Positions 13,420-64,000 of a DNA stretch of 64,000 nt are shown here, piece after piece (positions within the stretch are counted from its first letter, which is position 1; each line of letters starts with the position of its first letter). Source of the stretch: Nemertoderma westbladi (Eukaryota > Animalia > Xenacoelomorpha); assembly GCA_032718475.1 (NCBI GenBank), contig JAUCBJ010009046.1, positions 1-64,000 on the forward strand. The letters run 5' to 3'. The notes beneath the pieces are model-generated. The model was not told the origin of the DNA, did no database searches, and was given only the letters and a program-made list of their open reading frames with translations. Position numbers and translations under genes: made by a program.

Positions 13420-16400
13420 ACCTGCTCCACTACTAAATATAAACCTGCTCCACTACTCCATATAATCCTGCTCCACTACTAAATATAACCTGCTCCACTA
13501 CTAAATATAAACCTACTCTACTACTAAATATAAACCTGCTCCACTACTCCATATAATCCTGCTCCACTACTAAATATAACCTGCTCCACTACTAAATATA
13601 AACCTACTCCACTACTCCATATAAACCTGCTCCACTACTCCATATAAACCGTCTCCACTACTCGATATAAACCTGCTCCACTACTCCATATAAACCTGCT
13701 CCACTACTAAATATAACCTGCTCCACTACTAAATATAAACCTGCTCCACTACTAAATATAACCTGCTCCACTACTAAATATAACCTGCTCCACTACTAAA
13801 TATAAACCTACTCTACTACTCCATATAAACCTGCTCCACTACTCCATATAAACCTGCTCCACTACTAAATATAACCTGCTCCACTACTAAATATAAACCT
13901 ACTCTACTACTAAATATAAACCTGCTCCACTACTCCATATAATCCTGCTCCACTACTAAATATAACCTGCTCCACTACTAAATATAAACCTACTCCACTA
14001 CTCCATATAAACCTGCTCCACTACTCCATATAAACCGTCTCCACTACTCGATATAAACCTGCTCCACTACTCCATATAAACCTGCTCCACTACTAAATAT
14101 AAACGTACTCCACTACTAAATATAAACCTGCTCCACTACTCCAAATAAACCTGCTCCACTACTAAATATAAACCTGCTCCACTACTCCATATAAACCTGC
14201 TCCACTACTAAATATAACCTGCTCCACTACTAAATATAAACCTGCTCCACTACTCCATATAAACCTGCTCCACTACTAAATATAACCTGCTCCACTACTC
14301 CATATAAACCTGCTCCACTACTCCATATAAACCTGCTCCACTACTCCATATAAACCTGCTCCACTACTAAATATAACCTGCTCCACTACTAAATATAAAC
14401 CTGCTCCACTACTCCATATAAACCTGCTCCACTACTAAATATAACCTGCTCCACTACTAAATATAAACCTGCTCCACTACTCCATATAAACCTGCTCCAC
14501 TACTAAATATAACCTGCTCCACTACTCCATATAAACCTGCTCCACTACTCCATATAATCCTTCTCCACTACTCCATATAAACCTGCTCCACTACTCCACA
14601 TAAACCTGCTCCACTACTAAATATATACCTGCTCTACTACTCCATATAAACCTGCTCCACTACTAAATATAAACCTGCTCCACTACTCCATATAAACCTG
14701 CTCCACTACTCCATATAATCCTGCTCCACTACTAAATATAAACCTACTCTACTACTAAATATAAACCTGCTCCACTACTCCATATAATCCTGCTCCACTA
14801 CTAAATATAACCTGCTCCACTACTAAATATAAACCTACTCCACTACTCCATATAAACCTGCTCCACTACTCCATATAAACCTGCTCCACTACTAAATATA
14901 AACCTGCTCCACTACTCCATATAAACCTGCTCCACTACTAAATATAACCTGCTCCACTACTAAATATAAACCTGCTCCACTACTCCATATAAACCTGCTC
15001 CACTACTCCATATAATCCTTCTCCACTACTCCATATAAACCTGCTCCACTACTCCACATAAACCTGCTCCACTACTAAATATATACCTGCTCTACTACTC
15101 CATATAAACCTGCTCCACTACTAAATATAAACCTGCTCCACTACTAAATATAACCTGCTCCACTACTAAATATAAACCTGCTCCACTACTCCACATAAAC
15201 CTGCTCCACTACTCCATATAAACCTGCTCCACTACTAAATATAACCTGCTCCACTACTAAATATAAACCTGCTCCACTACTCCATATAAACCTGCTCCAC
15301 TAAAACATATAAACCTGCTCCACTACTCCATATAAACCTGCTCCACTACTAAATATAAACCTGCTCCACTACTCCATATAAACCTGCTCCACTACTCCAT
15401 ATAAACCTGCTCCACTACTCCATATAAACCTACTCCACTACTCCATATAAACCTGCTCCACTACTCCACATAAACGTGCTCCACTACTAAATATAAACCT
15501 GCTCCACTACTCCATATAAACCTGCTCCACTACTCCATATAAACCTGCTCCACTACTCCATATAATCCTGCTCCACTACTAAATATAAACCTGCTCCACT
15601 ACTCCATATAATCTTGATCCACTACTCCATATAAACCTGCTCCACTACTCCATATAAACCTGCTCCACTACTCCATATAAACCTACTCCACTACTCCATA
15701 TAAACCTGCTCCACTACTCCACATAAACGTGCTCCACTACTAAATATAAACCTGCTCCACTACTCCATATAAACCTGCTCCACTACTCCATATAAACCTG
15801 CTCCACTACTCCATATAATCCTGCTCCACTACTAAATATAAACCTGCTCCACTACTCCATATAATCTTGATCCACTACACCATATAATCCTGCTCCACTA
15901 CTCCATATAAACCTGCTCCACTACTCCATATAATCCTGCTCAACTACTCCATATAATCCTGCTCCACTACTCCACATAAACCTGCTCCACTACTCCATAT
16001 AAACCTGCTCCACTACTAAATATAACCTGCTCCACTACTAAATATAAACCTGCTCCACTACTCCATATAAACCTGCTCCACTACTCCATATAAACCTGCT
16101 CCACTACTCCATATAAACCTGCTCCACTACTCCATATAAACCTGCTCCACTACTAAATATAAACCTGCTCCACTACTCCATATAAACCTGCTCCACTACT
16201 AAATGTAACCTGCTCCACTACTCCATATAAACCTGCTTCACTACTAAATATAAACCTGCTCCACTACTCCATATAAACCTGCTCCACTACTAAATATAAC
16301 CTGCTCCACTACTAAATATAAACCTGTTCCACTACTAAATATAACCTGCTGCACTACTAAATATAAACCTGCTCCACTACTAAATATAAACCTGCTCCAC

Positions 16401-19400
16401 TACTCCACATAAACCTGCTCCACTACTCCATATAAACCTGCTCCACTACTAAATATAACCTGCTCCACTACTAAATATAAACCTGCTCCACTACTCCATA
16501 TAAACCTGCTCCACTACTCCATATAATCCTGCTCCACTACTCCATATAATCCTGCTCCACTACTCCACATAAACCTGCTCCACTACTCCACATAAACCTG
16601 CTCCACTACTCCATATAAACCTGCTCCACTACTAAATATAACCTGCTCCACTACTAAATATAAACCTGCTCCACTACTCCATATAATCTTGATCCACTAC
16701 ACCATATAATCCTGCTCCACTACTCCATATAAACCTGCTCCACTACTCCATATAATCCTGCTCCACTACTCCATATAATCCTGCTCCACTACTCCATATA
16801 ATCCTGCTCCACTACTCCACATAAACCTGCTCCACTACTCCATATAAACCTGCTCCACTACTAAATATAACCTGCTCCACTACTAAATATAAACCTGCTC
16901 CACTACTCCATATAAACCTGCTTCACTAAAACATATAAACCTGCTCCACTACTCCATATAAACCTGCTCCACTACTAAATATAAACCTGCTCCACTACTC
17001 CATATAAACCTGCTCCACTACTCCATATAAACCTGCTCCACTACTCCATATAAACCTACTCCACTACTCCATATAAACCTGCACCACTACTCCACATAAA
17101 CCTGCTCCACTACTCCATATAGACCTGCTCCACTACTCCATATAATCCTGCTCCACTACTAAATATAAACCTGCTCCACTACTCAATATAATCCTGCTCC
17201 ACTACTAAATATAAACCTGCTCCACTACTCCATATAATCTTGATCCACTACACCATATAGACCTGCTCCACTACTCCATATAAACCTGCTCCACTACTCC
17301 ATATAAACCTGCTCCACTACTCCATATAAACCTGCTCCACTACTCCATATAAACCTGCTCCACTACTAAATATAAACCTGCTCCACTACTCCATATAAAC
17401 CTGCTCCACTACTCCATATAAACCTGCTCCACTACTCCATATAAACCTGCTCCACTACTAAATATAAACCTGCTCCACTACTCCATATAAACCTGCTCCA
17501 CTACTAAATGTAACCTGCTCCACTACTCCATATAAACCTGCTTCACTACTAAATATAAACCTGCTCCACTACTCCATATAAACCTGCTCCACTACTAAAT
17601 ATAACCTGCTCCACTACTAAATATAAACCTGTTCCACTACTAAATATAACCTGCTGCACTACTAAATATAAACCTGCTCCACTACTAAATATAAACCTGC
17701 TCCACTACTAAATATAACCTGCTCCACTACTAAATATAAACCTGCTCCTCTACTTCATATAAACCTGTTCCACTACTGCATATAAACCTGCTCCACTACT
17801 AAATATAACCTGCTCCACTACTAAATATAAACCTGCTCCACTACTAAATATAACCTGCTCCACTACTAAATATAACCTGCTCCACTACTAAATATAAACC
17901 TGCTCCACTACTCCATATAATCCTGCTCCACTACTCCATATAAACCTGCTCCACTACTCCATATAAACTTGCTCCACTACTCCACATAAACCTGCTCCAC
18001 TACTCCATATAAACCTGCTCCACTACTAAATATAACCTGCTCCACTACTAAATATAAACCTGCTCCACTACTCCATATAATCCTGCTCCACTACTCCATA
18101 TAAACCTGCTCCACTACCCCATATAAACCTGCTACACTACTCCACATAAACCTGCTCCACTACTCCATATAAACCTGCTCCACTACTCCATATAAACCTG
18201 CTCCACTACTCGATATAAACCTGCTCCACTACTCCATATAAACCTGCTCCATTACTCCATATAATCCTGCTCCACTACTCCATATAAACCTGCTCCACTA
18301 CCCCATATAAACCTGCTACACTACTCCACATAAACCTGCTCCACTACTAAATATAAACCTGCTCCACTACTCCATATAATCCTGCTCCACTACTCCATAT
18401 AAACCTGCTCCACTACCCCTTATAAACCTGCTACACTACTCCACATAAACCTGCTCCACTACTCCATATAAACCTGCTCCGCTACTCCATATAAACCTGC
18501 TCCACTACTCGATATAAACCTGCTCCACTACTCCATATAAACCTGCTCCATTACTCCATATAATCCTGTTCCACTACTCCATATAAACCTGCTCCACTAC
18601 CCCATATAAACCTGCTACACTACTCCACATAAACCTGCTCCACTACCCCATATAAACCTGCTACACTACTCCACATAAACCTGCTCCACTACTCCATATA
18701 AACCTGCTCCACTACTCCATAAAAACCTGCTCCACTACTCCATATAAACCTGCTACACTACTCCACATAAACCTGCTCCACTACTCCATATAAACCTGCT
18801 CCACTACTCCATATAAACCTGCTCCACTACTCGATATAAACCTGCTCCACTACTCCATATAAACCTGCTCCAATACTCCATATAATCCTGCTCCACTACT
18901 CCATATAATCCTGCTCCACTACTCCACATAAACCTGCTCCACTACTCCATATAAACCTGCTCCACTACTCCACATAAACCTGCTCCACTACTCCATATAA
19001 ACCTGCTCCACTACTCCATATAATCCTGCTCCACTACTAAATATAAACCTGCTCCACTACTCCATATAAACCTGCTCCACTACTCCATATAAACCTGCTC
19101 CACTACTCCATATAAACCTGCTCCACTACTCCATATAAACCTGCTCCACTACTAAATATAACCTGCTCCACTACTAAATATAAACCTGCTCCACTACTCC
19201 ATATATACCTGCTCCACTACTCCATATAAACCTGCTCCACTATTCCATATAATCCTGCTCCACTACTCCATATAAACCTGCTCCACTACTCCATATAAAC
19301 CTGCTCCACTACTCCATATAAACCTGCTCCACTACTCCATATAAACCTGCTCCACTACTCCACATAAACCTGCTCCACTACTCCACATAAACCTGCTCCA

Positions 19401-22314
19401 CTACTCCATATAAACCTGCTCCACTACTCCACATAAACCTGCTCCACTACTCCATATAATCCTGCTCCACTACTCCATATAAACCTGCTCCACTACTCCA
19501 CATAAACCTGCTCCACTACTCCACATAAACCTGCTCCACTACTCCATATAAACCTGCTCCACTACTCCACATAAACCTGCTCCACTACTCCACATAAACC
19601 TGCTCCACTACTCCATATATACCTGCTCCACTACTCCATATAAACCTGCTCCACTACTCCACATAAACCTGCTCCACTACTCCATATAAACCTGCTCCAC
19701 TACTCCACATAAACCTGCTCCACTACTCCATATATACCTGCTCCACTACTCCATATAAACCTGCTCCACTACTCCACATAAACCTGCTCCACTACTCCAT
19801 ATAAACCTGCTCCATTACTCCATATAATCCTGCTCCACTACTCCATATAAACCTGCTCCACTACTAAATATAACCTGCTCCACTACTAAATATAAACCTG
19901 CTCCACTACTCCATATATACCTGCTCCACTACTCCATATAAACCTGCTCCACTATTCCATATAATCCTGCTCCACTACTCCATATAAACCTGCTCCACTA
20001 CTCCATATAAACCTGTTCCACTACTCCATATAAACCTGCTCCACTACTCCATATAAACCTGCTCCACTACTCCATATAAACCTGCTCCACTACTCCACAT
20101 AAACCTGCTCCACTACTCCACATAAACCTGCTCCACTACTCCATATAAACCTGCTCCACTACTCCACATAAACCTGCTCCACTACTCCATATAATCCTGC
20201 TCCACTACTCCATATAAACCTGCTCCACTACTCCACATAAACCTGCTCCACTACCCCATATAAACCTGCTACACTACTCAACATAAACCTGCTCTACTAC
20301 CCCATATAAACCTGCTACACTACTCCACATAAACCTGCACCACTACCCCATATAAACCTGCTACACTACTCCACATAAACCTGCTCCACTACTCCATATA
20401 AACCTGCTCCACTACTCCATATAAACCTGCTCCACTACTCCATATAAACCTGCTACACTACTCCACATAAACCTGCTCCACTACTCCATATAAACCTGCT
20501 CCACTACTCCATATAAACCTGCTCCACTACTAAATATAAACCTGCTCCACTACTCCATATAATCCTGCTCCACTACTCCATATAATCCTGCTCCACTACT
20601 CCATATAATCCTGCTCCACTACTCCACATAAACCTGCTCCACTACTCCATATAAACCTGCTCCACTACTCCACATAAACCTGCTCCACTACTCCATATAA
20701 ACCTGCTCCACTACTCCATATAATCCTGCTCCACTACTAAATATAAACCTGCTCCACTACTCCATATAAACCTGCTCCACTACTCCATATAAACCTGCTC
20801 CACTACTCCATATAAACCTGCTCCACTACTCCATATAAACCTGCTCCACTACTCCATATAATCCTGCTCCACTACTCCATATAAACCTGCTCCACTACTC
20901 CACATAAACCTGCTCCACTACTCCATATAAACCTGCTCCACTACTAAATATAACCTGCTCCACTACTAAATATAAACCTGCTCCACTACTCCATATATAC
21001 CTGCTCCACTACTCCATATAAACCTGCTCCACTATTCCATATAATCCTGCTCCACTACTCCATATAAACCTGCTCCACTACTCCATATAAACCTGCTCCA
21101 CTACTCCATATAAACCTGCTCCACTACTCCATATAAACCTGCTCCACTACTCCATATAAACCTGCTCCACTACTCCACATAAACCTGCTCCACTACTCCA
21201 CATAAACCTGCTCCACTACTCCATATAAACCTGCTCCACTACTCCACATAAACCTGCTCCACTACTCCATATAATCCTGCTCCACTACTCCATATAAACC
21301 TGCTCCACTACTCCACATAAACCTGCTCCACTACTCCACATAAACCTGCTCCACTACTCCATATAAACCTGCTCCACTACTCCACATAAACCTGCTCCAC
21401 TACTCCACATAAACCTGCTCCACTACTCCATATATACCTGCTCCACTACTCCATATAAACCTGCTCCACTACTTCACATAAACCTGCTCCACTACTCCAT
21501 ATAAACCTGCTCCACTACTCCACATAAACCTGCTCCACTACTCCATATATACCTGCTCCACTACTCCATATAAACCTGCTCCACTACTCCACATAAACCT
21601 GCTCCACTACTCCATATAAACCTGCTCCATTACTCCATATAATCCTGCTCCACTACTCCATATAAACCTGCTCCACTACTAAATATAACCTGCTCCACTA
21701 CTAAATATAAACCTGCTCCACTACTCCATATATACCTGCTCCACTACTCCATATAAACCTGCTCCACTATTCCATATAATCCTGCTCCACTACTCCATAT
21801 AAACCTGCTCCACTATTCCATATAAACCTGCTCCACTACTCCATATAAACCTGCTCCACTACTCCATATAAACCTGCTCCACTACTCCATATAAACCTGC
21901 TCCACTACTCCACATAAACCTGCTCCACTACTCCACATAAACCTGCTCCACTACTCCATATAAACCTGCTCCACTACTCCACATAAACCTGCTCCACTAC
22001 TCCATATAATCCTGCTCCACTACTCCATATAAACCTGCTCCACTACTCCACATAAACCTGCTCCACTACCCCATATAAACCTGCTACACTACTCAACATA
22101 AACCTGCTCCACTACTCCATATAAACCTGCTCCACTACTCCACATAAACCTGCTCCACTACTCCACATAAACCTGCTCCACTACTCCATATAAACCTGCT
22201 CCACTACTCCACATAAACCTGCTCCACTACTCCATATAAACCTGCTCCACTACTAAATATAAACCTGCTCCACTACTCCATATAAACCTGCTCCACTACT
22301 CCACATAAACCTAC
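13420..22314. repeat. 22/23-bp minisatellite filling 8.9 kb of the 9.1-kb last intron
   Basis: Plus-strand unit aaacctgctccactactccatat, with variants ...ctaaatat and ...ccacat. About 390 copies; begins on the donor GT of the M3 exon. Confidence 0.98.
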
Positions 22315-22519
22315 CGTTTTCTTTTGCTTCGAAGTCGGACTGACTTGGAGGATTCCGTGTCCATACAGAGCAGAGAAGCGCAGAATCCCAGAATGAGTCG
22401 GCGCATCCAGATTGGTAATGGTTTACACTTGGGCCCCTCGCGGTGGTGAATATTGAGAACAACAACAGTGAGGATGATTGATAGACCAATGAGAACGAGA
22501 GCACAGAAGAAATATATTC
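22315..22519 (-). CDS. nAChR alpha-type subunit, M3 and start of intracellular loop exon
   Basis: tatttccag | (G)IYFFCALVLIGLSIILTVVVLNIHHREGPKCKPLPIWMRRLILGFCASLLCM...RSKRK(R) | gtaggt. 205 nt, phase 1 to phase 2. VLNIHHR and PxW motifs. Confidence 0.94.
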
Positions 22520-28273: not shown

Positions 28274-28557
28274 AAGCTGCTGTGTTGATACATTGGCTTC
28301 TGGGGTGGCACAGTAAGCTGCTGTGTTGATACATTGGCTTCTGGGGTGGCACAGTAAGCTGCTGTGTTGATACATTGGCTTCTGGGGTGGCACAGTAAGC
28401 TGCTGTGTTGATACATTCGCTTCTGGGGTGGCACAGTAAGCTGCTGTGTTGATACATTGGCTTCTGGGGTGGCACAGTAAGCTGCTGTGTTGATACATTG
28501 GCTTCTGGGGTGGCACAGTAAGCTGCTGTGTTGATACATTGGCTTCTGGGTGGCACA
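28274..28557. repeat. 41-bp minisatellite (~7 copies)
   Basis: Unit aagctgctgtgttgatacattggcttctggggtggcacagt, about 110 bp into the intron from the M2-exon donor. Confidence 0.96.
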
Positions 28558-28665
28558 ATTCTTACAAACCTGTGTTTTTTGGGATCTTCTATTAATACAA
28601 ATTATAATTATTTATGAAATATTTACCAATAAATATAGCGAAGCCATTGCAATATGCTCACTTAC

Positions 28666-28888
28666 CTATATAGGGTATGCTGTCTGAAGTAGGAGGCATA
28701 TTTTCCGCGACTAGCAATAGGAATACAGTGAGTGAGAGAAGTATGGTTATCTGTAGGCCTATTTTCTCTCCACTGGCACAAGGTAAATAGAACCCAATAA
28801 GAGCCACAAATGTAATGAGGATGCAGGGTAGGAGAATGTTGATGATGTAATACAGAGGTAGTCGTATCAACACCATTTTGTAGGTCAC
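28666..28888 (-). CDS. nAChR alpha-type subunit, M1-M2 exon
   Basis: ttttccttaag | [74 protein letters not shown](G) | gtaagt. 223 nt. SGEK motif before M2 and PPTS M2-M3 loop; preceded by a 132-bp intron. Confidence 0.96.
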
Positions 28889-29020
28889 CTTAAGGAAAAT
28901 GTAATAAATCATAAAACAGATTTTAACATCTGTTGAGAATATTTAATTGATTTTGTCAAACGTGTCCTTCACTTTTAATATTGAAAAATTTGCCCTGAAC
29001 TGTAAATAACTCAAACTTAC

Positions 29021-29161
29021 CGTGGTATAAGGAGTATTTGGACAGCAAGGGTAAAAAAGGTTTTCTTCTATTCCTTTAAATTGAGCTAAATCCCATTCTC
29101 CATTTGTCTGGAAACTTCCCTTTTGGTCTTCCAGTGTTCTGTGCCTAACACTTAAGTTCAC
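29021..29161 (-). CDS. nAChR alpha-type subunit, loop C exon (vicinal cysteines)
   Basis: aatatag | VNLSVRHRTLEDQKGSFQTNGEWDLAQFKGIEENLFYPCCPNTPYTT | gtaagt. 141 nt, phase 0/0. NGEW and YxCC...PY define an alpha subunit. Confidence 0.95.
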
Positions 29162-29627
29162 CTATATTAGCAACGAAAAACACAATTAGGCAAGTTATCA
29201 AAGGCTAAGTAGGTTTTAATGTCTGCTGATAAGTTTCCGGTTTCAATGAATCCAGGTCAAGCACAAGGGAATATTATCACTATAAGAATCCACCACATCC
29301 TTTCTTATGTGTCAAGTGGTTCCAGACATAGGCATGCAATTAGGACAGTGATATTCGCACCCAGCTAATTGGGTAATTGGGATAGGTACATGTGCGCATA
29401 TGGTATTAATACACAGCGGTCATTCATAGTCATTCATATTTTCTAATTGCCAGATCGGTGACACAGGAAATCGATATCCTGTGAGGGTTGGCTGCTCATG
29501 CAACAACATTTAATCCTTTGACTTGTGATCTGAGTTGGTAAAGCTCGAAATTCTGCGTGATCCATACTGTAGCAAGCAAACAGTTGGCCGAGGCCAGAGG
29601 CGAGCCAAAGACTCTTTCGATAGCTGA

Positions 29628-30636
29628 TACCCGAAGGTAGGTAGGGGTGGGTGTTACTCCTATCTGCTACCCGATGGTAGGGGCGGGCGCTACTCCTATC
29701 TGCTAGCCGAAGGTATGGTTGGGCGCTACTCCTATCTGCTAACCGAAGGTAGGGGCGGGCGCTACTCCTATCTGCTAGCCGAAGGTATGGTTGGGCGCTA
29801 CTCCTATCTGCTAACCGAAGGTAGGGGCGGGCGCTACTCCTATCTGCTAACCGAAGGTAGGGGCGGGCGCTACTCCTATCTGCTACCCGAGGGTAGGGGT
29901 GGGCGCTACTCCTATCTGCTACCCTAAGGTAGGGGCGGGCGCTACTCCTATCTGCTAACCGAAGGTAGGAGTGTGCGCTACTCCTATCTGCAACCCGAAG
30001 GTAGGGGTGGGCGCTACTCCTATCTGCTACCCGAAGGTAGGGGTGGGCGCTACTCCTATCTGCTACCCGAAGGTAGGGGTGTGCGCTACTCCTATCTGCT
30101 ACCCGCAGGTAGAGGTGGGCGCTACTCCTATCTGCTACACGAAGGTAGGGGTGGGCGCTACTCCTATCTGCTAACCGAAGGTAGGGGCGGGCGCTACCCC
30201 TATCTGCTAACCGAAGGTAGGGGCGGGCGCTACTCCTATCCGCTACCCCAAGGTAGGGGTGGGCACTACTCCTATCTGTTACCCGAAGCTAGGGGTGGGC
30301 GCTACTCCTATCTGCTAGCCGAAGGTAGGGGTGGGCACTACTCCTACCTGTTACCACAAGGTAGGGGTGGGCGCTACTCCTATCTGCTACACGAATGTAG
30401 GGGTGGGCGCTACTCTTATCTGCTACCTGAAGGTGCGGGTGGGCGCTACTCCTATCTGCTACCCGATGGTAGGGGTGGGCGCTACTCCTATCTGCTACCC
30501 GAAGGTAGGGGTGGGCGCTACTCCTATCTGCTACCCGAAGGTAGGGGTGGGCACTACTCCTATCTGCTACCCGAAGGTAGGGGTGGGCGCTACTCCTATC
30601 TAGTACCCGAGGGTAGGGGTGGGCGCTACTCCTATC
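29628..30636. repeat. 36-bp GC-rich minisatellite (~28 copies)
   Basis: Unit ccgaaggtaggggtgggcgctactcctatctgctac; more diverged than the neighbouring arrays. Confidence 0.96.
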
Positions 30637-31094
30637 CCTTGTTTTGCTCCCAGTAATTTAACTGGTACTCATATGAATCCATTCATATGCATACTGTGAA
30701 CTATGTATTGTACAAGCACTTATCATATTGGAAAAAATATATTTATATATTTTTTTTATGAAAACTTTTATTTTTAATTGGTATATAATAACTGTAACAT
30801 TGCATACTTTGTACCATCACGGCAACATATTATTAATTAAATAGCCGTATGTATAGTATATTAGTAAGATTATTAATAATAATGCAGGACGTATAACCAC
30901 AACTCAATGCCGCCCTGAAGACATAGCGGATGAATGTTGCCAGTCACTTCTGCCAGATCTTATCAGTCTGTACAGGAAGCCGTTCTAACGTAGCCGCCTA
31001 TCTGGTGGTAGGAATGGTTGTAGTTACACATTAACATTCCGGACATGTTTTCTAAAAGACACTACTGGTCTGGATAGTGCAGCAGTCGGACCGG

Positions 31095-47100: not shown

Positions 47101-50100
47101 CATCCGTAAGTCACACAATCACTTACAACATCTAGTACCATCCGTAAGTCATATACAATCACTTACAACATCTAGTACCATCCGTATGTCATACAATCAC
47201 TTACAACATCTAGTACCATCCGTATGTCATACAATCACTTACAACATCTAGTACCATCCGTAAGTCATATACAATCACTTACAACATCTAGTACCATCCG
47301 TAAGTCATATACAATCACTTACAACATCTAGTACCATCCGTAAGTCATATACAATCACTTACAACATCTAGTACCATCCGTAAGTCATATACAATCACTT
47401 ACAACATCTAGTACCATCCGTAAGTCATATACAATCACTTACAACATCTAGTACCATCCGTAAGTCATATACAATCACTTACAACATCTAGTACCATCCG
47501 TAAGTCATATACAATCACTTACAACATCTAGTACCATCCGTAAGTCATATACAATCACTTACAACATCTAGTACCATCCGTAAGTCATATACAATCACTT
47601 ACAACATCTAGTACCATCCGTATGTCATACAATCACTTACAACATCTAGTACCATCCGTAAGTCATATACAATCACTTACAACATCTAGTACCATCCGTA
47701 AGTCATATACAATCACTTACAACATCTAGTACCATCCGTATGTCATACAATCACTTACAACATCTAGTACCATCCGTATGTCATATACAATCACTTACAA
47801 CATCTAGTACCATCCGTATGTCATACAATCACTTACAACATCTAGTACCATCCGTATGTCATACAATCACTTACAACATCTAGTACCATCCGTATGTCAT
47901 ACAATCACTTACAACATCTAGTACCATCCGTATGTCATACAATCACTTACAACATCTAGTACCATCCGTAAGTCATATACAATCACTTACAACATCTAGT
48001 ACCATCCGTATGTCATACAATCACTTACAACATCTAGTACCATCCGTATGTCATACAATCACTTACAACATCTAGTACCATCCGTATGTCATACAATCAC
48101 TTACAACATCTAGTACCATCCGTATGTCATACAATCACTTACAACATCTAGTACCATCCGTATGTCATACAATCACTTACAACATCTAGTACCATCCGTA
48201 AGTCATATACAATCACTTACAACATCTAGTACCATCCGTATGTCATACAATCACTTACAACATCTAGTACCATCCGTATGTCATATACAATCACTTACAA
48301 CATCTAGTACCATCCGTATGTCATACAATCACTTACAACATCTAGTACCATCCGTAAGTCATACAATCACTTACAACATCTAGTACCATCCGTAAGTCAT
48401 ATACAATCACTTACAACATCTAGTACCATCCGTAAGTCATATACAATCACTTACAACATCTAGTACCATCCGTATGTCATACAATCACTTACAACATCTA
48501 GTACCATCCGTAAGTCATATACAATCACTTACAACATCTAGTACCATCCGTAAGTCATATACAATCACTTACAACATCTAGTACCATCCGTAAGTCATAC
48601 AATCACTTACAACATCTAGTACCATCCGTAAGTCATACAATCACTTACAACATCTAGTACCATCCGTAAGTCATACAATCACTTACAACATCTAGTACCA
48701 TCCGTAAGTCATACAATCACTTACAACATCTAGTACCATCCGTATGTCATACAATCACTTACAACATCTAGTACCATCCGTATGTCATACAATCACTTAC
48801 AACATCTAGTACCATCCGTATGTCATATACAATCACTTACAACATCTAGTACCATCCGTATGTCATACAATCACTTACAACATCTAGTACCATCCGTATG
48901 TCATACAATCACTTACAACATCTAGTACCATCCGTATGTCATACAATCACTTACAACATCTAGTACCATCCGTATGTCATACAATCACTTACAACATCTA
49001 GTACCATCCGTAAGTCATATACAATCACTTACAACATCTAGTACCATCCGTATGTCATACAATCACTTACAACATCTAGTACCATCCGTATGTCATACAA
49101 TCACTTACAACATCTAGTACCATCCGTATGTCATACAATCACTTACAACATCTAGTACCATCCGTATGTCATACAATCACTTACAACATCTAGTACCATC
49201 CGTATGTCATATACAATCACTTACAACATCTAGTACCATCCGTATGTCATACAATCACTTACAACATCTAGTACCATCCGTATGTCATACAATCACTTAC
49301 AACATCTAGTACCATCCGTATGTCATACAATCACTTACAACATCTAGTACCATCCGTATGTCATACAATCACTTACAACATCTAGTACCATCCGTAAGTC
49401 ATATACAATCACTTACAACATCTAGTACCATCCGTATGTCATACAATCACTTACAACATCTAGTACCATCCGTATGTCATACAATCACTTACAACATCTA
49501 GTACCATCCGTATGTCATACAATCACTTACAACATCTAGTACCATCCGTATGTCATACAATCACTTACAACATCTAGTACCATCCGTATGTCATATACAA
49601 TCACTTACAACATCTAGTACCATCCGTATGTCATACAATCACTTACAACATCTAGTACCATCCGTATGTCATACAATCACTTACAACATCTAGTACCATC
49701 CGTAAGTCATATACAATCACTTACAACATCTAGTACCATCCGTAAGTCATACAATCACTTACAACATCTAGTACCATCCGTAAGTCATACAATCACTTAC
49801 AACATCTAGTACCATCCGTATGTCATACAATCACTTACAACATCTAGTACCATCCGTAAGTCATACAATCACTTACAACATCTAGTACCATCCGTATGTC
49901 ATACAATCACTTACAACATCTAGTACCATCCGTATGTCATACAATCACTTACAACATCTAGTACCATCCGTATGTCATATACAATCACTTACAACATCTA
50001 GTACCATCCGTATGTCATACAATCACTTACAACATCTAGTACCATCCGTATGTCATACAATCACTTACAACATCTAGTACCATCCGTATGTCATATACAA

Positions 50101-53100
50101 TCACTTACAACATCTAGTACCATCCGTATGTCATACAATCACTTACAACATCTAGTACCATCCGTATGTCATACAATCACTTACAACATCTAGTACCATC
50201 CGTATGTCATATACAATCACTTACAACATCTAGTACCATCCGTATGTCATACAATCACTTACAACATCTAGTACCATCCGTATGTCATACAATCACTTAC
50301 AACATCTAGTACCATCCGTAAGTCATATACAATCACTTACAACATCTAGTACCATCCGTAAGTCATACAATCACTTACAACATCTAGTACCATCCGTATG
50401 TCATACAATCACTTACAACATCTAGTACCATCCGTAAGTCATACAATCACTTACAACATCTAGTACCATCCGTATGTCATACAATCACTTACAACATCTA
50501 GTACCATCCGTATGTCATACAATCACTTACAACATCTAGTACCATCCGTATGTCATATACAATCACTTACAACATCTAGTACCATCCGTATGTCATACAA
50601 TCACTTACAACATCTAGTACCATCCGTATGTCATACAATCACTTACAACATCTAGTACCATCCGTAAGTCATATACAATCACTTACAACATCTAGTACCA
50701 TCCGTAAGTCATACAATCACTTACAACATCTAGTACCATCCGTAAGTCATATACAATCACTTACAACATCTAGTACCATCCGTAAGTCATACAATCACTT
50801 ACAACATCTAGTACCATCCGTAAGTCATACAATCACTTACAACATCTAGTACCATCCGTAAGTCATATACAATCACTTACAACATCTAGTACCATCCGTA
50901 AGTCATACAATCACTTACAACATCTAGTACCATCCGTATGTCATACAATCACTTACAACATCTAGTACCATCCGTATGTCATACAATCACTTACAACATC
51001 TAGTACCATCCGTATGTCATACAATCACTTACAACATCTAGTACCATCCGTAAGTCATACAATCACTTACAACATCTAGTACCATCCGTAAGTCATACAA
51101 TCACTTACAACATCTAGTACCATCCGTATGTCATACAATCACTTACAACATCTAGTACCATCCGTATGTCATACAATCACTTACAACATCTAGTACCATC
51201 CGTAAGTCATATACAATCACTTACAACATCTAGTACCATCCGTAAGTCATACAATCACTTACAACATCTAGTACCATCCGTAAGTCATACAATCACTTAC
51301 AACATCTAGTACCATCCGTAAGTCATACAATCACTTACAACATCTAGTACCATCCGTAAGTCATATACAATCACTTACAACATCTAGTACCATCCGTATG
51401 TCATACACAATCACTTACAACATCTAGTACCATCCGTATGTCATACAATCACTTACAACATCTAGTACCATCCGTAAGTCATACAATCACTTACAACATC
51501 TAGTACCATCCGTAAGTCATATACAATCACTTACAACATCTAGTACCATCCGTAAGTCATATACAATCACTTACAACATCTAGTACCATCCGTAAGTCAT
51601 ATACAATCACTTACAACATCTAGTACCATCCGTAAGTCATATACAATCACTTACAACATCTAGTACCATCCGTAAGTCATATACAATCACTTACAACATC
51701 TAGTACCATCCGTAAGTCATATACAATCACTTACAACATCTAGTACCATCCGTAAGTCATATACAATCACTTACAACATCTAGTACCATCCGTAAGTCAT
51801 ATACAATCACTTACAACATCTAGTACCATCCGTAAGTCATATACAATCACTTACAACATCTAGTACCATCCGTAAGTCACACAATCACTTACAACATCTA
51901 GTACCATCCGTAAGTCATACAATCACTTACAACATCTAGTACCATCCGTAAGTCATATACAATCACTTACAACATCTAGTACCATCCGTAAGTCATACAA
52001 TCACTTACAACATCTAGTACCATCCGTAAGTCATACAATCACTTACAACATCTAGTACCATCCGTATGTCATACAATCACTTACAACATCTAGTACCATC
52101 CGTATGTCATACAATCACTTACAACATCTAGTACCATCCGTAAGTCATATACAATCACTTACAACATCTAGTACCATCCGTAAGTCATATACAATCACTT
52201 ACAACATCTAGTACCATCCGTAAGTCATACAATCACTTACAACATCTAGTACCATCCGTAAGTCATATACAATCACTTACAACATCTAGTACCATCCGTA
52301 TGTCACACAATCACTTACAACATCTAGTACCATCCGTAAGTCATATACAATCACTTACAACATCTAGTACCATCCGTAAGTCATATACAATCACTTACAA
52401 CATCTAGTACCATCCGTATGTCACACAATCACTTACAACATCTAGTACCATCCGTAAGTCATATACAATCACTTACAACATCTAGTACCATCCGTATGTC
52501 ACACAATCACTTACAACATCTAGTACCATCCGTATGTCACACAATCACTTACAACATCTAGTACCATCCGTATGTCACACAATCACTTACAACATCTAGT
52601 ACCATCCGTATGTCATACAATCACTTACAACATCTAGTACCATCCGTATGTCACACAATCACTTACAACATCTAGTACCATCCGTAAGTCATATACAATC
52701 ACTTACAACATCTAGTACCATCCGTATGTCACACAATCACTTACAACATCTAGTACCATCCGTATGTCATACAATCACTTACAACATCTAGTACCATCCG
52801 TAAGTCATACAATCACTTACAACATCTAGTACCATCCGTATGTCATACAATCACTTACAACATCTAGTACCATCCGTATGTCATACAATCACTTACAACA
52901 TCTAGTACCATCCGTAAGTCATACAATCACTTACAACATCTAGTACCATCCGTATGTCATACAATCACTNNNNNNNNNNNNNNNNNNNNNNNNNNNNNNN
53001 NNNNNNNNNNNNNNNNNNNNNNNNNNNNNNNNNNNNNNNNNNNNNNNNNNNNNNNNNNNNNNNNNNNNNCAATCACTTACAACATCTAGTACCATCCGTA

Positions 53101-56100
53101 TGTCATACAATCACTTACAACATCTAGTACCATCCGTAAGTCATACAATCACTTACAACATCTAGTACCATCCGTAAGTCATACAATCACTTACAACATC
53201 TAGTACCATCCGTATGTCATACAATCACTTACAACATCTAGTACCATCCGTAAGTCATACAATCACTTACAACATCTAGTACCATCCGTATGTCATACAA
53301 TCACTTACAACATCTAGTACCATCCGTATGTCATACAATCACTTACAACATCTAGTACCATCCGTAAGTCATATACAATCACTTACAACATCTAGTACCA
53401 TCCGTAAGTCATATACAATCACTTACAACATCTAGTACCATCCGTAAGTCATATACAATCACTTACAACATCTAGTACCATCCGTAAGTCATACAATCAC
53501 TTACAACATCTAGTACCATCCGTATGTCATACAATCACTTACAACATCTAGTACCATCCGTAAGTCATATACAATCACTTACAACATCTAGTACCATCCG
53601 TAAGTCATACAATCACTTACAACATCTAGTACCATCCGTAAGTCATACAATCACTTACAACATCTAGTACCATCCGTAAGTCATACAATCACTTACAACA
53701 TCTAGTACCATCCGTAAGTCATACAATCACTTACAACATCTAGTACCATCCGTAAGTCATACAATCACTTACAACATCTAGTACCATCCGTAAGTCATAT
53801 ACAATCACTTACAACATCTAGTACCATCCGTAAGTCATATACAATCACTTACAACATCTAGTACCATCCGTATGTCATACAATCACTTACAACATCTAGT
53901 ACCATCCGTAAGTCATATACAATCACTTACAACATCTAGTACCATCCGTATGTCATACAATCACTTACAACATCTAGTACCATCCGTAAGTCATATACAA
54001 TCACTTACAACATCTAGTACCATCCGTAAGTCATATACAATCACTTACAACATCTAGTACCATCCGTAAGTCATACAATCACTTACAACATCTAGTACCA
54101 TCCGTAAGTCATACAATCACTTACAACATCTAGTACCATCCGTAAGTCATACAATCACTTACAACATCTAGTACCATCCGTAAGTCATATCAATCACTTA
54201 CAACATCTAGTACCATCCGTAAGTCATATACAATCACTTACAACATCTAGTACCATCCGTAAGTCATATACAATCACTTACAACATCTAGTACCATCCGT
54301 AAGTCATATACAATCACTTACAACATCTAGTACCATCCGTAAGTCATACAATCACTTACAACATCTAGTACCATCCGTAAGTCATACAATCACTTACAAC
54401 ATCTAGTACCATCCGTAAGTCATACAATCACTTACAACATCTAGTACCATCCGTAAGTCATATACAATCACTTACAACATCTAGTACCATCCGTAAGTCA
54501 TACAATCACTTACAACATCTAGTACCATCCGTAAGTCATACAATCACTTACAACATCTAGTACCATCCGTATGTCATACAATCACTTACAACATCTAGTA
54601 CCATCCGTAAGTCATACAATCACTTACAACATCTAGTACCATCCGTAAGTCATACAATCACTTACAACATCTAGTACCATCCGTAAGTCATACAATCACT
54701 TACAACATCTAGTACCATCCGTAAGTCATACAATCACTTACAACATCTAGTACCATCCGTATGTCATACAATCACTTACAACATCTAGTACCATCCGTAA
54801 GTCATACAATCACTTACAACATCTAGTACCATCCGTAAGTCATATACAATCACTTACAACATCTAGTACCATCCGTAAGTCATATACAATCACTTACAAC
54901 ATCTAGTACCATCCGTAAGTCATATACAATCACTTACAACATCTAGTACCATCCGTAAGTCATACAATCACTTACAACATCTAGTACCATCCGTAAGTCA
55001 TATACAATCACTTACAACATCTAGTACCATCCGTAAGTCATACAATCACTTACAACATCTAGTACCATCCGTAAGTCATATACAATCACTTACAACATCT
55101 AGTACCATCCGTAAGTCATATACAATCACTTACAACATCTAGTACCATCCGTAAGTCATACAATCACTTACAACATCTAGTACCATCCGTAAGTCATACA
55201 ATCACTTACAACATCTAGTACCATCCGTAAGTCATACAATCACTTACAACATCTAGTACCATCCGTAAGTCATATACAATCACTTACAACATCTAGTACC
55301 ATCCGTAAGTCATATACAATCACTTACAACATCTAGTACCATCCGTAAGTCATACAATCACTTACAACATCTAGTACCATCCGTAAGTCATACAATCACT
55401 TACAACATCTAGTACCATCCGTAAGTCATATACAATCACTTACAACATCTAGTACCATCCGTAAGTCATACAATCACTTACAACATCTAGTACCATCCGT
55501 AAGTCATATACAATCACTTACAACATCTAGTACCATCCGTAAGTCATATACAATCACTTACAACATCTAGTACCATCCGTAAGTCATACAATCACTTACA
55601 ACATCTAGTACCATCCGTAAGTCATATACAATCACTTACAACATCTAGTACCATCCGTAAGTCATACAATCACTTACAACATCTAGTACCATCCGTAAGT
55701 CATATACAATCACTTACAACATCTAGTACCATCCGTAAGTCATACAATCACTTACAACATCTAGTACCATCCGTAAGTCATACAATCACTTACAACATCT
55801 AGTACCATCCGTAAGTCATACAATCACTTACAACATCTAGTACCATCCGTAAGTCATACAATCACTTACAACATCTAGTACCATCCGTAAGTCATATACA
55901 ATCACTTACAACATCTAGTACCATCCGTAAGTCATACAATCACTTACAACATCTAGTACCATCCGTAAGTCATATACAATCACTTACAACATCTAGTACC
56001 ATCCGTAAGTCATATACAATCACTTACAACATCTAGTACCATCCGTAAGTCATATACAATCACTTACAACATCTAGTACCATCCGTAAGTCATACAATCA

Positions 56101-59100
56101 CTTACAACATCTAGTACCATCCGTATGTCATACAATCACTTACAACATCTAGTACCATCCGTAAGTCATATACAATCACTTACAACATCTAGTACCATCC
56201 GTAAGTCATACAATCACTTACAACATCTAGTACCATCCGTAAGTCATATACAATCACTTACAACATCTAGTACCATCCGTAAGTCATATACAATCACTTA
56301 CAACATCTAGTACCATCCGTAAGTCATATACAATCACTTACAACATCTAGTACCATCCGTAAGTCATATACAATCACTTACAACATCTAGTACCATCCGT
56401 AAGTCATATACAATCACTTACAACATCTAGTACCATCCGTAAGTCATATACAATCACTTACAACATCTAGTACCATCCGTAAGTCATATACAATCACTTA
56501 CAACATCTAGTACCATCCGTATGTCATACAATCACTTACAACATCTAGTACCATCCGTAAGTCATATACAATCACTTACAACATCTAGTACCATCCGTAA
56601 GTCATATACAATCACTTACAACATCTAGTACCATCCGTATGTCATACAATCACTTACAACATCTAGTACCATCCGTAAGTCATATACAATCACTTACAAC
56701 ATCTAGTACCATCCGTATGTCATACAATCACTTACAACATCTAGTACCATCCGTAAGTCATACAATCACTTACAACATCTAGTACCATCCGTATGTCATA
56801 CAATCACTTACAACATCTAGTACCATCCGTAAGTCATATACAATCACTTACAACATCTAGTACCATCCGTAAGTCATATACAATCACTTACAACATCTAG
56901 TACCATCCGTAAGTCATACAATCACTTACAACATCTAGTACCATCCGTATGTCATACAATCACTTACAACATCTAGTACCATCCGTAAGTCATACAATCA
57001 CTTACAACATCTAGTACCATCCGTAAGTCATACAATCACTTACAACATCTAGTACCATCCGTAAGTCATATACAATCACTTACAACATCTAGTACCATCC
57101 GTAAGTCATATACAATCACTTACAACATCTAGTACCATCCGTAAGTCATATACAATCACTTACAACATCTAGTACCATCCGTAAGTCATACAATCACTTA
57201 CAACATCTAGTACCATCCGTAAGTCATATACAATCACTTACAACATCTAGTACCATCCGTATGTCATACAATCACTTACAACATCTAGTACCATCCGTAA
57301 GTCATATACAATCACTTACAACATCTAGTACCATCCGTAAGTCATATACAATCACTTACAACATCTAGTACCATCCGTATGTCATACAATCACTTACAAC
57401 ATCTAGTACCATCCGTAAGTCATACAATCACTTACAACATCTAGTACCATCCGTAAGTCATACAATCACTTACAACATCTAGTACCATCCGTAAGTCATA
57501 TACAATCACTTACAACATCTAGTACCATCCGTAAGTCATATACAATCACTTACAACATCTAGTACCATCCGTAAGTCATACAATCACTTACAACATCTAG
57601 TACCATCCGTAAGTCATATACAATCACTTACAACATCTAGTACCATCCGTATGTCATACAATCACTTACAACATCTAGTACCATCCGTAAGTCATATACA
57701 ATCACTTACAACATCTAGTACCATCCGTATGTCATACAATCACTTACAACATCTAGTACCATCCGTAAGTCATATACAATCACTTACAACATCTAGTACC
57801 ATCCGTAAGTCATATACAATCACTTACAACATCTAGTACCATCCGTAAGTCATACAATCACTTACAACATCTAGTACCATCCGTAAGTCATACAATCACT
57901 TACAACATCTAGTACCATCCGTATGTCATACAATCACTTACAACATCTAGTACCATCCGTAAGTCATATACAATCACTTACAACATCTAGTACCATCCGT
58001 AAGTCATATACAATCACTTACAACATCTAGTACCATCCGTAAGTCATACAATCACTTACAACATCTAGTACCATCCGTAAGTCATATACAATCACTTACA
58101 ACATCTAGTACCATCCGTAAGTCATACAATCACTTACAACATCTAGTACCATCCGTAAGTCATACAATCACTTACAACATCTAGTACCATCCGTAAGTCA
58201 TATACAATCACTTACAACATCTAGTACCATCCGTAAGTCATACAATCACTTACAACATCTAGTACCATCCGTAAGTCATATACAATCACTTACAACATCT
58301 AGTACCATCCGTAAGTCATATACAATCACTTACAACATCTAGTACCATCCGTAAGTCATACAATCACTTACAACATCTAGTACCATCCGTAAGTCATATA
58401 CAATCACTTACAACATCTAGTACCATCCGTAAGTCATACAATCACTTACAACATCTAGTACCATCCGTAAGTCATATACAATCACTTACAACATCTAGTA
58501 CCATCCGTAAGTCATATACAATCACTTACAACATCTAGTACCATCCGTAAGTCATATACAATCACTTACAACATCTAGTACCATCCGTAAGTCATACAAT
58601 CACTTACAACATCTAGTACCATCCGTATGTCATACAATCACTTACAACATCTAGTACCATCCGTAAGTCATATACAATCACTTACAACATCTAGTACCAT
58701 CCGTAAGTCATACAATCACTTACAACATCTAGTACCATCCGTAAGTCATATACAATCACTTACAACATCTAGTACCATCCGTAAGTCATACAATCACTTA
58801 CAACATCTAGTACCATCCGTAAGTCATATACAATCACTTACAACATCTAGTACCATCCGTAAGTCGTCATACAATCACTTACAACATCTAGTACCATCCG
58901 TATGTCATACAATCACTTACAACATCTAGTACCATCCGTAAGTCATATACAATCACTTACAACATCTAGTACCATCCGTAAGTCATATACAATCACTTAC
59001 AACATCTAGTACCATCCGTAAGTCATACAATCACTTACAACATCTAGTACCATCCGTATGTCATATACAATCACTTACAACATCTAGTACCATCCGTAAG

Positions 59101-62100
59101 TCATACAATCACTTACAACATCTAGTACCATCCGTAAGTCATATACAATCACTTACAACATCTAGTACCATCCGTAAGTCATATACAATCACTTACAACA
59201 TCTAGTACCATCCGTATGTCATATACAATCACTTACAACATCTAGTACCATCCGTAAGTCATACAATCACTTACAACATCTAGTACCATCCGTAAGTCAT
59301 ATACAATCACTTACAACATCTAGTACCATCCGTAAGTCATACAATCACTTACAACATCTAGTACCATCCGTAAGTCATATACAATCACTTACAACATCTA
59401 GTACCATCCGTAAGTCATATACAATCACTTACAACATCTAGTACCATCCGTAAGTCATATACAATCACTTACAACATCTAGTACCATCCGTAAGTCATAC
59501 AATCACTTACAACATCTAGTACCATCCGTAAGTCATATACAATCACTTACAACATCTAGTACCATCCGTAAGTCGTCATACAATCACTTACAACATCTAG
59601 TACCATCCGTAAGTCATATACAATCACTTACAACATCTAGTACCATCCGTAAGTCATACAATCACTTACAACATCTAGTACCATCCGTAAGTCATATACA
59701 ATCACTTACAACATCTAGTACCATCCGTAAGTCATACAATCACTTACAACATCTAGTACCATCCGTATGTCATATACAATCACTTACAACATCTAGTACC
59801 ATCCGTAAGTCATATACAATCACTTACAACATCTAGTACCATCCGTAAGTCATATACAATCACTTACAACATCTAGTACCATCCGTAAGTCGGTCATACA
59901 ATCACTTACAACATCTAGTACCATCCGTATGTCATATACAATCACTTACAACATCTAGTACCATCCGTAAGTCGTCATACAATCACTTACAACATCTAGT
60001 ACCATCCGTATGTCATATACAATCACTTACAACATCTAGTACCATCCGTAAGTCGTCATACAATCACTTACAACATCTAGTACCATCCGTAAGTCATATA
60101 CAATCACTTACAACATCTAGTACCATCCGTAAGTCATACAATCACTTACAACATCTAGTACCATCCGTAAGTCATATACAATCACTTACAACATCTAGTA
60201 CCATCCGTAAGTCATACAATCACTTACAACATCTAGTACCATCCGTATGTCATATACAATCACTTACAACATCTAGTACCATCCGTAAGTCATATACAAT
60301 CACTTACAACATCTAGTACCATCCGTAAGTCATATACAATCACTTACAACATCTAGTACCATCCGTAAGTCATACAATCACTTACAACATCTAGTACCAT
60401 CCGTAAGTCATATACAATCACTTACAACATCTAGTACCATCCGTAAGTCATATACAATCACTTACAACATCTAGTACCATCCGTAAGTCATACAATCACT
60501 TACAACATCTAGTACCATCCGTAAGTCATACAATCACTTACAACATCTAGTACCATCCGTAAGTCATACAATCACTTACAACATCTAGTACCATCCGTAA
60601 GTCATACAATCACTTACAACATCTAGTACCATCCGTAAGTCATACAATCACTTACAACATCTAGTACCATCCGTAAGTCATATACAATCACTTACAACAT
60701 CTAGTACCATCCGTAAGTCATATACAATCACTTACAACATCTAGTACCATCCGTAAGTCATACAATCACTTACAACATCTAGTACCATCCGTAAGTCATA
60801 TACAATCACTTACAACATCTAGTACCATCCGTAAGTCATATACAATCACTTACAACATCTAGTACCATCCGTAAGTCATATACAATCACTTACAACATCT
60901 AGTACCATCCGTAAGTCATATACAATCACTTACAACATCTAGTACCATCCGTATGTCATATACAATCACTTACAACATCTAGTACCATCCGTAAGTCATA
61001 TACAATCACTTACAACATCTAGTACCATCCGTATGTCATATACAATCACTTACAACATCTAGTACCATCCGTAAGTCATATACAATCACTTACAACATCT
61101 AGTACCATCCGTAAGTCATATACAATCACTTACAACATCTAGTACCATCCGTATGTCATATACAATCACTTACAACATCTAGTACCATCCGTAAGTCATA
61201 TACAATCACTTACAACATCTAGTACCATCCGTAAGTCATACAATCACTTACAACATCTAGTACCATCCGTAAGTCATATACAATCACTTACAACATCTAG
61301 TACCATCCGTAAGTCATATACAATCACTTACAACATCTAGTACCATCCGTAAGTCATACAATCACTTACAACATCTAGTACCATCCGTATGTCATATACA
61401 ATCACTTACAACATCTAGTACCATCCGTATGTCATATACAATCACTTACAACATCTAGTACCATCCGTAAGTCATATACAATCACTTACAACATCTAGTA
61501 CCATCCGTATGTCATATACAATCACTTACAACATCTAGTACCATCCGTAAGTCATATACAATCACTTACAACATCTAGTACCATCCGTATGTCATATACA
61601 ATCACTTACAACATCTAGTACCATCCGTAAGTCATACAATCACTTACAACATCTAGTACCATCCGTAAGTCATATACAATCACTTACAACATCTAGTACC
61701 ATCCGTAAGTCATACAATCACTTACAACATCTAGTACCATCCGTAAGTCATATACAATCACTTACAACATCTAGTACCATCCGTAAGTCATACAATCACT
61801 TACAACATCTAGTACCATCCGTATGTCATATACAATCACTTACAACATCTAGTACCATCCGTATGTCATATACAATCACTTACAACATCTAGTACCATCC
61901 GTAAGTCATATACAATCACTTACAACATCTAGTACCATCCGTATGTCATATACAATCACTTACAACATCTAGTACCATCCGTAAGTCATATACAATCACT
62001 TACAACATCTAGTACCATCCGTATGTCATATACAATCACTTACAACATCTAGTACCATCCGTAAGTCATACAATCACTTACAACATCTAGTACCATCCGT

Positions 62101-64000
62101 AAGTCATATACAATCACTTACAACATCTAGTACCATCCGTAAGTCATACAATCACTTACAACATCTAGTACCATCCGTAAGTCATATACAATCACTTACA
62201 ACATCTAGTACCATCCGTAAGTCATACAATCACTTACAACATCTAGTACCATCCGTAAGTCATATACAATCACTTACAACATCTAGTACCATCCGTAAGT
62301 CATATACAATCACTTACAACATCTAGTACCATCCGTAAGTCATACAATCACTTACAACATCTAGTACCATCCGTAAGTCATACAATCACTTACAACATCT
62401 AGTACCATCCGTAAGTCATACAATCACTTACAACATCTAGTACCATCCGTAAGTCATACAATCACTTACAACATTTAGTACCATCCGTAAGTCATACAAT
62501 CACTTACAACATCTAGTACCATCCGTAAGTCATATACAATCACTTACAACATCTAGTACCATCCGTAAGTCATATACAATCACTTACAACATCTAGTACC
62601 ATCCGTAAGTCATACAATCACTTACAACATCTAGTACCATCCGTAAGTCATATACAATCACTTACAACATCTAGTACCATCCGTAAGTCATACAATCACT
62701 TACAACATCTAGTACCATCCGTAAGTCATACAATCACTTACAACATCTAGTACCATCCGTAAGTCATATACAATCACTTACAACATCTAGTACCATCCGT
62801 AAGTCATATACAATCACTTACAACATCTAGTACCATCCGTAAGTCATACAATCACTTACAACATCTAGTACCATCCGTAAGTCATATACAATCACTTACA
62901 ACATCTAGTACCATCCGTAAGTCATACAATCACTTACAACATCTAGTACCATCCGTATGTCATATACAATCACTTACAACATCTAGTACCATCCGTAAGT
63001 CATATACAATCACTTACAACATTTAGTACCATCCGTAAGTCATATACAATCACTTACAACATCTAGTACCATCCGTAAGTCATATACAATCACTTACAAC
63101 ATCTAGTACCATCCGTAAGTCATATACAATCACTTACAACATCTAGTACCATCCGTAAGTCATATACAATCACTTACAACATCTAGTACCATCCGTAAGT
63201 CACACAATCACTTACAACATCTAGTACCATCCGTAAGTCATATACAATCACTTACAACATCTAGTACCATCCGTAAGTCATACAATCACTTACAACATCT
63301 AGTACCATCCGTAAGTCATACAATCACTTACAACATCTAGTACCATCCGTAAGTCACACAATCACTTACAACATCTAGTACCATCCGTAAGTCATATACA
63401 ATCACTTACAACATCTAGTACCATCCGTAAGTCATACAATCACTTACAACATCTAGTACCATCCGTAAGTCATACAATCACTTACAACATCTAGTACCAT
63501 CCGTAAGTCATATACAATCACTTACAACATCTAGTACCATCCGTAAGTCATACAATCACTTACAACATCTAGTACCATCCGTAAGTCATATACAATCACT
63601 TACAACATCTAGTACCATCCGTAAGTCATATACAATCACTTACAACATCTAGTACCATCCGTAAGTCATATACAATCACTTACAACATCTAGTACCATCC
63701 GTAAGTCATATACAATCACTTACAACATCTAGTACCATCCGTAAGTCATATACAATCACTTACAACATCTAGTACCATCCGTATTTCATACAATCACTTA
63801 CAACATCTAGTACCATCCGTAAGTCATATACAATCACTTACAACATCTAGTACCATCCGTATTTCATACAATCACTTACAACATCTAGTACCATCCGTAA
63901 GTCATATACAATCACTTACAACATCTAGTACCATCCGTAAGTCATATACAATCACTTACAACATCTAGTACCATCCGTATTTCATACAATCACTTACAAC
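35181..64000. repeat. Giant 38/40-bp tandem array in the nAChR intron; unit resembles exon end plus GTAAGT donor on the sense strand
   Basis: Plus-strand unit caatcacttacaacatctagtaccatccgta(a/t)gtcata(ta). About 740 copies by length; runs off the right edge and spans a gap. Confidence 0.98.
52970..53069. other. Assembly gap (100 N) inside the giant array
   Basis: Exactly 100 N, typical of a placeholder of unknown size. The repeat has the same orientation on both sides. Confidence 0.99.

Follow-up and report, generated by a model that had tools for sequence, protein, structure and literature searches.

We analysed a stretch of 64,000 nt from the xenacoelomorph Nemertoderma westbladi (contig JAUCBJ010009046.1, positions 1 to 64,000 of the forward strand; hereafter the window), which carries six exons of a nicotinic acetylcholine receptor gene and, in the introns of this gene, long tandem arrays. 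One of these arrays spans a 5' splice site (donor), a second very probably does so, and a third abuts one. Receptor pieces were first found by six-frame translation of the non-repeat parts of the window. They form six minus-strand exons, A to F (Table 1), separated by GT-AG introns, whose spliced frame stays open for 428 codons without a shift and closes with a TGA. Five of the six match Pfam (exons A and B in Neur_chan_LBD; exons D, E, and F in Neur_chan_memb), while exon C, searched alone, gave no Pfam match. The 15-residue Cys-loop, the loop B tryptophan, the vicinal cysteines of loop C, and M2 are all intact in the encoded protein. By its domains, Cys-loop, and vicinal cysteines, the predicted product is an alpha-type subunit of the nicotinic acetylcholine receptor.

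Protein identity to 28 full-length homologues was 28-35%, and a FastTree phylogeny with 17 of these 28 placed the protein on a long branch beside invertebrate alpha9/10-like proteins, a position that does not fix its subtype. The search for a close orthologue through exon B returned one candidate and no significant one; through exon A, word search returned none, and identity did not exceed 48% among 86 phmmer matches. Exon A aligns with residues 66-116 of full-length alpha7, and vertebrate alpha7 presumably has an intron immediately before residue 66. The first exons of the gene fall beyond the window, and the visible part comprises five whole introns and one partial one, in agreement with the six counted in the first-pass annotation of this DNA.

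The setting is rich in repeats. Ten tandem arrays with mutually unrelated units of 23-46 bp occupy 50202 of the 64000 nt (78%), and seven of them lie inside the gene. Minisatellites are therefore the rule in this window, and any claim that an array is anchored on a splice site must be weighed against that. Four of the seven gene arrays sit away from splice sites and were used as a within-gene comparison set.

Table 1. Exons, arrays, and assembly gap in the window (a slash within a motif marks the exon-intron boundary).
Feature	Position	Strand	Remarks
38/40-bp array	35181..64000	-	Runs past the window end; 738 donor copies
Diverged last unit of the 38/40-bp array	35181..35218	-	Probable original start of the intron; ACTTAC follows the donor G by 15 nt
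100-N assembly gap	52970..53069		Inside the 38/40-bp array
Exon A (DEKNQ...VMVYN)	34939..35090	-	Ligand-binding domain; aligns with alpha7 residues 66-116
Exon B	34307..34490	-	Cys-loop, loop B; last 36 nt make up the exonic portion of the 44-bp unit
44-bp array, 22 copies	33379..34342	-	Real donor (34306), then exon end and donor repeated 21 times
Other intronic arrays, four in all (units of 41, 36, 33, and 27 bp)	28274..32589		Nearest donor 108-2075 nt off; within-gene comparison set
Exon C	29021..29161	-	Loop C with vicinal cysteines YPCC
Exon D	28666..28888	-	M1-M2
Exon E	22315..22519	-	M3, first part of cytoplasmic loop
22/23-bp array, about 388 units	13420..22314	-	Starts on the donor GT; ends in CAG/GTAGGT at 13421
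Exon F	12833..13214	-	Loop end, M4, stop

Anatomy of the three arrays

The array in the intron after exon B is a donor-spanning minisatellite. In its 44-bp unit, the final 36 nt of exon B are followed by 8 nt of the donor, GTGAGTGT, and its 22 copies bear out what the first-pass annotation had described as an array of exon end plus donor. Each of the 21 downstream copies agrees with the exon 36-mer at 33-36 positions. The donor motif AAG/GTRAGT is kept in 17 of them and degraded in the other 4, and the donor of one copy (at 33651) is closer to consensus than the real one. Far copies (33473-33606) have GTGTAACACT in place of the GTGTATCACT of near copies; both words can be derived from TGTAACATCACT of the exon, and they may record the first junction.

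Contigs from three of four sequencing runs (X1, X2, and X3) carry the head-to-tail 44-bp junction, as loose ends. At this junction the contigs of X1 and X3 show two single-letter differences from the window, and the X2 contig is continuous from exon B through the first unit and beyond. X1 and X3 come from one sample, so that the three runs represent two samples, both of which are possibly the source of the window itself. In X1-X3, summed contig depth on the unit exceeded the flank by a factor of 11-90, a ratio that does not give a copy number. In the fourth run, X4, a fraction of 0.32 of the words of 28600-29200 was present, yet there were no contigs at 34299-35218; this run may derive from RNA, from sparse DNA, or from an individual that has diverged. 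Of six runs in all, none is recorded as RNA, which has no bearing on whether the gene is expressed.

The array in the intron before exon A is built of units with about 21 nt reading LRMVLDV, a GTAAGT donor, and 9-13 nt of intron. We counted 738 GTT/GTAAGT sites and, among 736 pieces, 20 types. LRMVLDV is what the bases before GTAAGT read in the phase of exon A, and homologues have xLxQIxDV at this place, before DEKNQ. Against the 28 full-length homologues this register ranked first of 76, and its score was attained in 2 of 20000 shuffles and at 1 of 27058 background sites. It was again the best register against a second homologue set (59 of the 86 phmmer proteins, kept because their match begins at residue 1), where 1 of 100000 shuffles reached its score. 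The profile gain was +9 bits, compared to 4.5 for the next of 44 stop-free registers. By these comparisons the array very probably copies the end of an unseen upstream exon, lying outside the window.

For this array the first-pass annotation had proposed some 740 or more copies of the expected upstream exon end plus GTAAGT. The number of sites and the register test agree with this, but the assembly gap had been missed. The gap splits the array into 458 units (17.8 kb) that are gap-free next to exon A and 277 units beyond, and because of it the true length of the array is not established. Unit variants recur in blocks, with identical runs of up to 24 units compared to at most 11 in 30 shuffles. 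One such 24-variant run is found both at 52934, beside the gap, and at 46858, 157 units (about 6.1 kb) away. Recurring blocks fit unequal exchange, and could also be assembly overlap, being next to the gap. The order of the unit variants is non-periodic, unlike that of a collapsed consensus.

In intron E-F, the 22/23-bp array makes up 8895 of 9100 nt. It begins on the donor of exon E (ACG/GTAGGT at 22314), a site identified solely from splice signals and frame, within the unconserved M3-M4 loop. Exon sequence is absent from the unit, whose longest match to exon E is 6 nt. Among 375 parsed unit starts, 309 read GCAGGT, 39 read GCAGGA, and only 10 read GTAGGT, and many units contain an inner CAG/GTTTAT, which is a different and poorer site. 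We hence classify this array as a donor-abutting intronic minisatellite and not as a donor-spanning one. Its start on the donor GT and its approximately 390 copies had been correctly noted, but the hundreds of near-identical donors then ascribed to such arrays are not found here, most copies having GC. The idea that three arrays are anchored on 5' splice sites thus holds for the 44-bp array, very likely holds for the 38/40-bp array, and reduces in the third case to contact with a donor.

The three periods (44, 38/40, and 22/23 bp) have match rates of 92-96%, head-to-tail. The 23-bp unit resembles the 44-bp and the 38-bp units only at shuffle level, and the 44-bp and 38-bp units resemble each other slightly more than shuffles do (12 of 500), as would be expected if both hold a donor. 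The claim that the units are unrelated stands with this small exception, and a common origin of the three was rejected on this comparison. A 24-nt unit pattern searched against metagenome contigs gave no matches.

Reading frame, folding, and the rest of the window

Only the first of the 22 unit donors of the 44-bp array gives the full frame; with any of the others, the visible frame is cut short by a stop at its codon 127. When all 140 GT/GC positions are considered, three keep the frame: the first donor and, at +6 and +18, two poor sites that depart from the consensus. In the 23-bp array, a single position of 1566 does so. In-frame stops are present in 7 of the 8 commonest 38/40-bp variants, while a 39-nt variant (3 copies) has none. 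The rule that only the first donor maintains the frame, as initially put forward, is hence correct for the unit donors of the 44-bp array and for the 23-bp array, with exceptions at +6 and +18 and in the 39-nt variant.

Structural masking of the later donors, also raised in the first-pass annotation, was rejected for the 44-bp array: the mean unpaired probability was 0.62 in 17 copies vs 0.47 in the real donor, so that the copies are predicted to be no more paired than the site they would have to yield to. The case is weak in the 38/40-bp array too. There, ACTTAC is present in 511 of 734 units, where it can pair with the donor of the same unit in a predicted stem of 7-8 bp, but the predicted unpaired probability of the copies (0.11-0.38) is within the range of the five real donors of the gene (0.10-0.59). 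A modelled first donor followed by 30 nt of intron was as paired as a copy (0.16-0.18 vs 0.12), and with only 12 nt of intron made it was freer (0.42, standard deviation 0.17, vs 0.19). The presence of GTAAGT on both strands of the unit amounts to a short inverted repeat with its halves 9-11 nt apart. It is likely older than the array, because the diverged last unit has it too; approximately 0.7% of 25-nt windows in non-array DNA hold the inverted word.

Elsewhere in the window, intron D-E contains a broken long interspersed nuclear element at 24300-27460, on the minus strand like the gene, with Exo_endo_phos and RVT_1 in three frames and a short TAG-rich tail near 24250. Three more unrelated arrays, with units of 41/46, 27, and 46 bp, lie downstream of the stop (3396-12655), the 27- and 46-bp ones separated by 8 nt. 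On the plus strand, 233-1708 is CpG-rich, with several stop-free frames of 105-150 codons and the look of an element.

Donor-repeating minisatellites in other animals

Donor-spanning arrays are an already described kind, known from human and lancelet genes. In intron 7 of human F7, which bears a 37-bp variable number tandem repeat (VNTR), tests with 50 constructs found that splicing picks the most upstream donor even though the copies can function (PMC1557585). In the LMNB2 and PDGF repeats the real site is the only one used, and in IFI6 (6-16) and CBS two more sites are used (PMC1557585). All five share with the 44-bp array, and very probably with the 38/40-bp array, a first unit that lies across the junction of exon and intron, a consequent repetition of the donor within the intron, and units of tens of bases. 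The human CBS VNTR, c.1444_1467+7(16_21), has a 31-bp unit of 24 nt of exon and 7 nt of donor, much like the 36 + 8 nt of the 44-bp unit (PMC2630376), in 16-21 copies and with two pseudo-sites in use (PMC2630376, PMC1557585). The differences lie in number and in kind of evidence. Spare donors in the F7-type cases amount to 5-25, compared to 21 and at least 458 here (738 in the assembly), and, unlike them, the present gene has more than one array. Donor use and length polymorphism were measured in the human cases, whereas the present arrays are known from DNA sequence.

In lancelets, 'mirage' minisatellites of Adh3, the globins BflGb6 and BflGb9, troponin C (TnC), and PGBD5 leave splicing undisturbed (PMC3087553, PMC3902484). 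They too are invertebrate arrays in which exon-intron boundaries are repeated in tandem, with units of 10-160 bp and several per gene, and they keep the splice signal in many, but not all, copies; their end units are diverged, as in the 38/40-bp array. The globin and PGBD5 mirages nevertheless have 2-7 copies and not hundreds, and mirages include acceptor-side cases, of which the present gene has 0 of 6. Two further systems come near the 23-bp array in scale, with units of about 25 bp: the long intronic VNTR of ABCA7 intron 18 (PMC6660495) and the 10-19 kb minisatellite introns of earthworm metallothionein (PMC12783039). Neither is described as donor-repeating in the available text, and length effects were measured in ABCA7 but not in the earthworm introns. 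A catalogue of splicing-linked repeats (PMC10078293) does not, in the part available, test donor anchoring, and we found no genome-wide test of array enrichment at donors in the literature searched, a scope that left most subscription papers outside. The gene described here stands out by the size of its arrays and by having two or three cases at once.

Origin and persistence of the arrays

To estimate how often arrays would touch donors by chance, every array was collapsed to one unit, with seven gene arrays and six donors. The expected number of donor-touching arrays was 0.15-0.27. P was 0.0003-0.0016 (up to ~0.002) for at least three of seven and 0.009-0.026 for at least two, post hoc values that overstate the case because the window was chosen for this pattern. 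Within the gene, seeding at donors (3/6) did not differ significantly from seeding at acceptors (0/6; Fisher p 0.18). A 181-nt stretch of the plus strand (29455-29635) begins after an AG behind a pyrimidine tract and is followed by AAG/GTAGGT, where the 36-bp array (29639-30636) starts. This stretch could be due to chance or be a non-coding antisense exon, which would make a fourth donor-seeded array; a coding exon is ruled out by stops in three frames. Recursive splicing was dropped as a candidate too, the AG/GT words of the units having no pyrimidine tract.

We think it probable that the arrays arose as chance short duplications, one donor-spanning, one very probably so, and one donor-starting, which grew by ordinary repeat turnover and likely persist because splicing would take the first donor. 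Each would have been seeded by a single duplication of 23-47 nt between short matching words. For the 23-mer these would be GTAGGT and GCAGGT, 23 nt apart, the donor word being one of two near-matches; for the 38-mer, the word may be TTAC, common to exon and intron. Growth by slippage and unequal exchange is suggested by the repeated variant blocks and the diverged end units. A duplication across a donor keeps the real exon and donor intact and first in line, and the 5'-most donor would be chosen as the RNA is made, as in human F7. When the sequence is translated from a later unit donor, a stop soon follows, and such RNA would be removed by nonsense-mediated decay. Short duplications across an acceptor would be removed more often, since a wrong AG would come first, and their loss could skew arrays towards donors even if nothing targeted them. 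Both of these removals, of mis-spliced RNA and of acceptor-spanning units, are supposed on general grounds. The arrays are thus likely to be harmless, the first signal being the one used, and first-come use of the 5'-most donor is plausible in this gene. Tandem duplications seeded by microhomology are also common and mostly neutral (PMC13167724).

Several observations weigh against this account. Published cases have 5-25 spare donors, compared to more than 700 here. In IFI6 and CBS two pseudo-sites are also used (PMC1557585). The putative upstream donor, if it is GTT/GTAAGT like its copies, would be weak on the exon side, with 6 of 11 consensus matches. Drift and tolerance predict no excess at donors, yet three (or two) of seven arrays are donor-seeded when 0.15-0.27 are expected, and these include the window's two longest arrays.

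The donor excess could instead reflect a mutational bias that seeds duplications at 5' splice sites, for instance through strand breaks or slippage at places where new RNA is engaged by polymerase and U1, or through the step in composition between exon and intron, followed by growth and tolerance. We regard this as unlikely, despite the P value for three of seven arrays (0.0003-0.0016), the three unrelated units, and a 23-mer that begins on the donor while gaining nothing from it. The lancelet cases (Adh3, globins, TnC, and PGBD5, the last with two of its 5' splice sites involved) are repeated instances that favour it as well. Yet all our counts come from a single window selected for the pattern, the 3/6 vs 0/6 contrast is not significant (p 0.18), and donor-like words are also found on the antisense strand of other units (AAG/GTA in the 36-mer and CC/GTAAGT in the 38-mer). 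The process favouring exon-intron junctions that the first-pass annotation invoked is compatible with the in-window count, which does not demonstrate it. Less likely still is a combination of preferential seeding at 5' splice sites with masking, in which ACTTAC would shut the copies of a ladder of more than 700 donors (~29 kb), well above any published case we found, while the first donor would be briefly open on leaving the polymerase; the folding predictions given above bear on this version.

An assembly artefact or a gene out of function is, in our view, improbable: the length of the 38/40-bp array may be partly an assembly product, the part past the gap may belong elsewhere, or the gene may no longer work. 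The gap itself, the 24-unit run that recurs 157 units away from it, and the position of the 5' exon outside the window would all fit, but 458 units lie gap-free beside exon A, the variant order is non-periodic, the X2 contig runs from exon B into and past the first 44-bp unit, and 428 codons are read without stop or shift. Least credible of all is selection keeping the arrays to tune receptor dose, via delayed transcription or through splicing that yields unproductive RNA destined for decay. Later unit donors do give early stops, as nearly any intron would after a missed donor, and longer intron repeats in human ABCA7 accompany lower expression and exon skipping (PMC6660495). However, the donor is lost in 4 of 21 44-mer copies and in most 23-mer copies, arrays of equal length are found outside the gene, and the low variety of the 38/40-bp array (20 unit types in 736 pieces) fits recent growth. 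We found nothing in support of the suggestion that array length tunes receptor expression.

Chance duplication with tolerance, our preferred explanation, leaves a gene in which the spare donors behind a real one go from tens to hundreds, so that the 'first donor wins' rule of F7 meets a new scale. Such arrays are also a caution for gene prediction where genomes are rich in repeats, since they present false exon ends by the hundred. If a donor excess were true genome-wide, it would link splicing or transcription to the birthplaces of minisatellites, and if seeding bias and masking were both to prove true, this gene would be a natural test of the reach of first-come donor choice.

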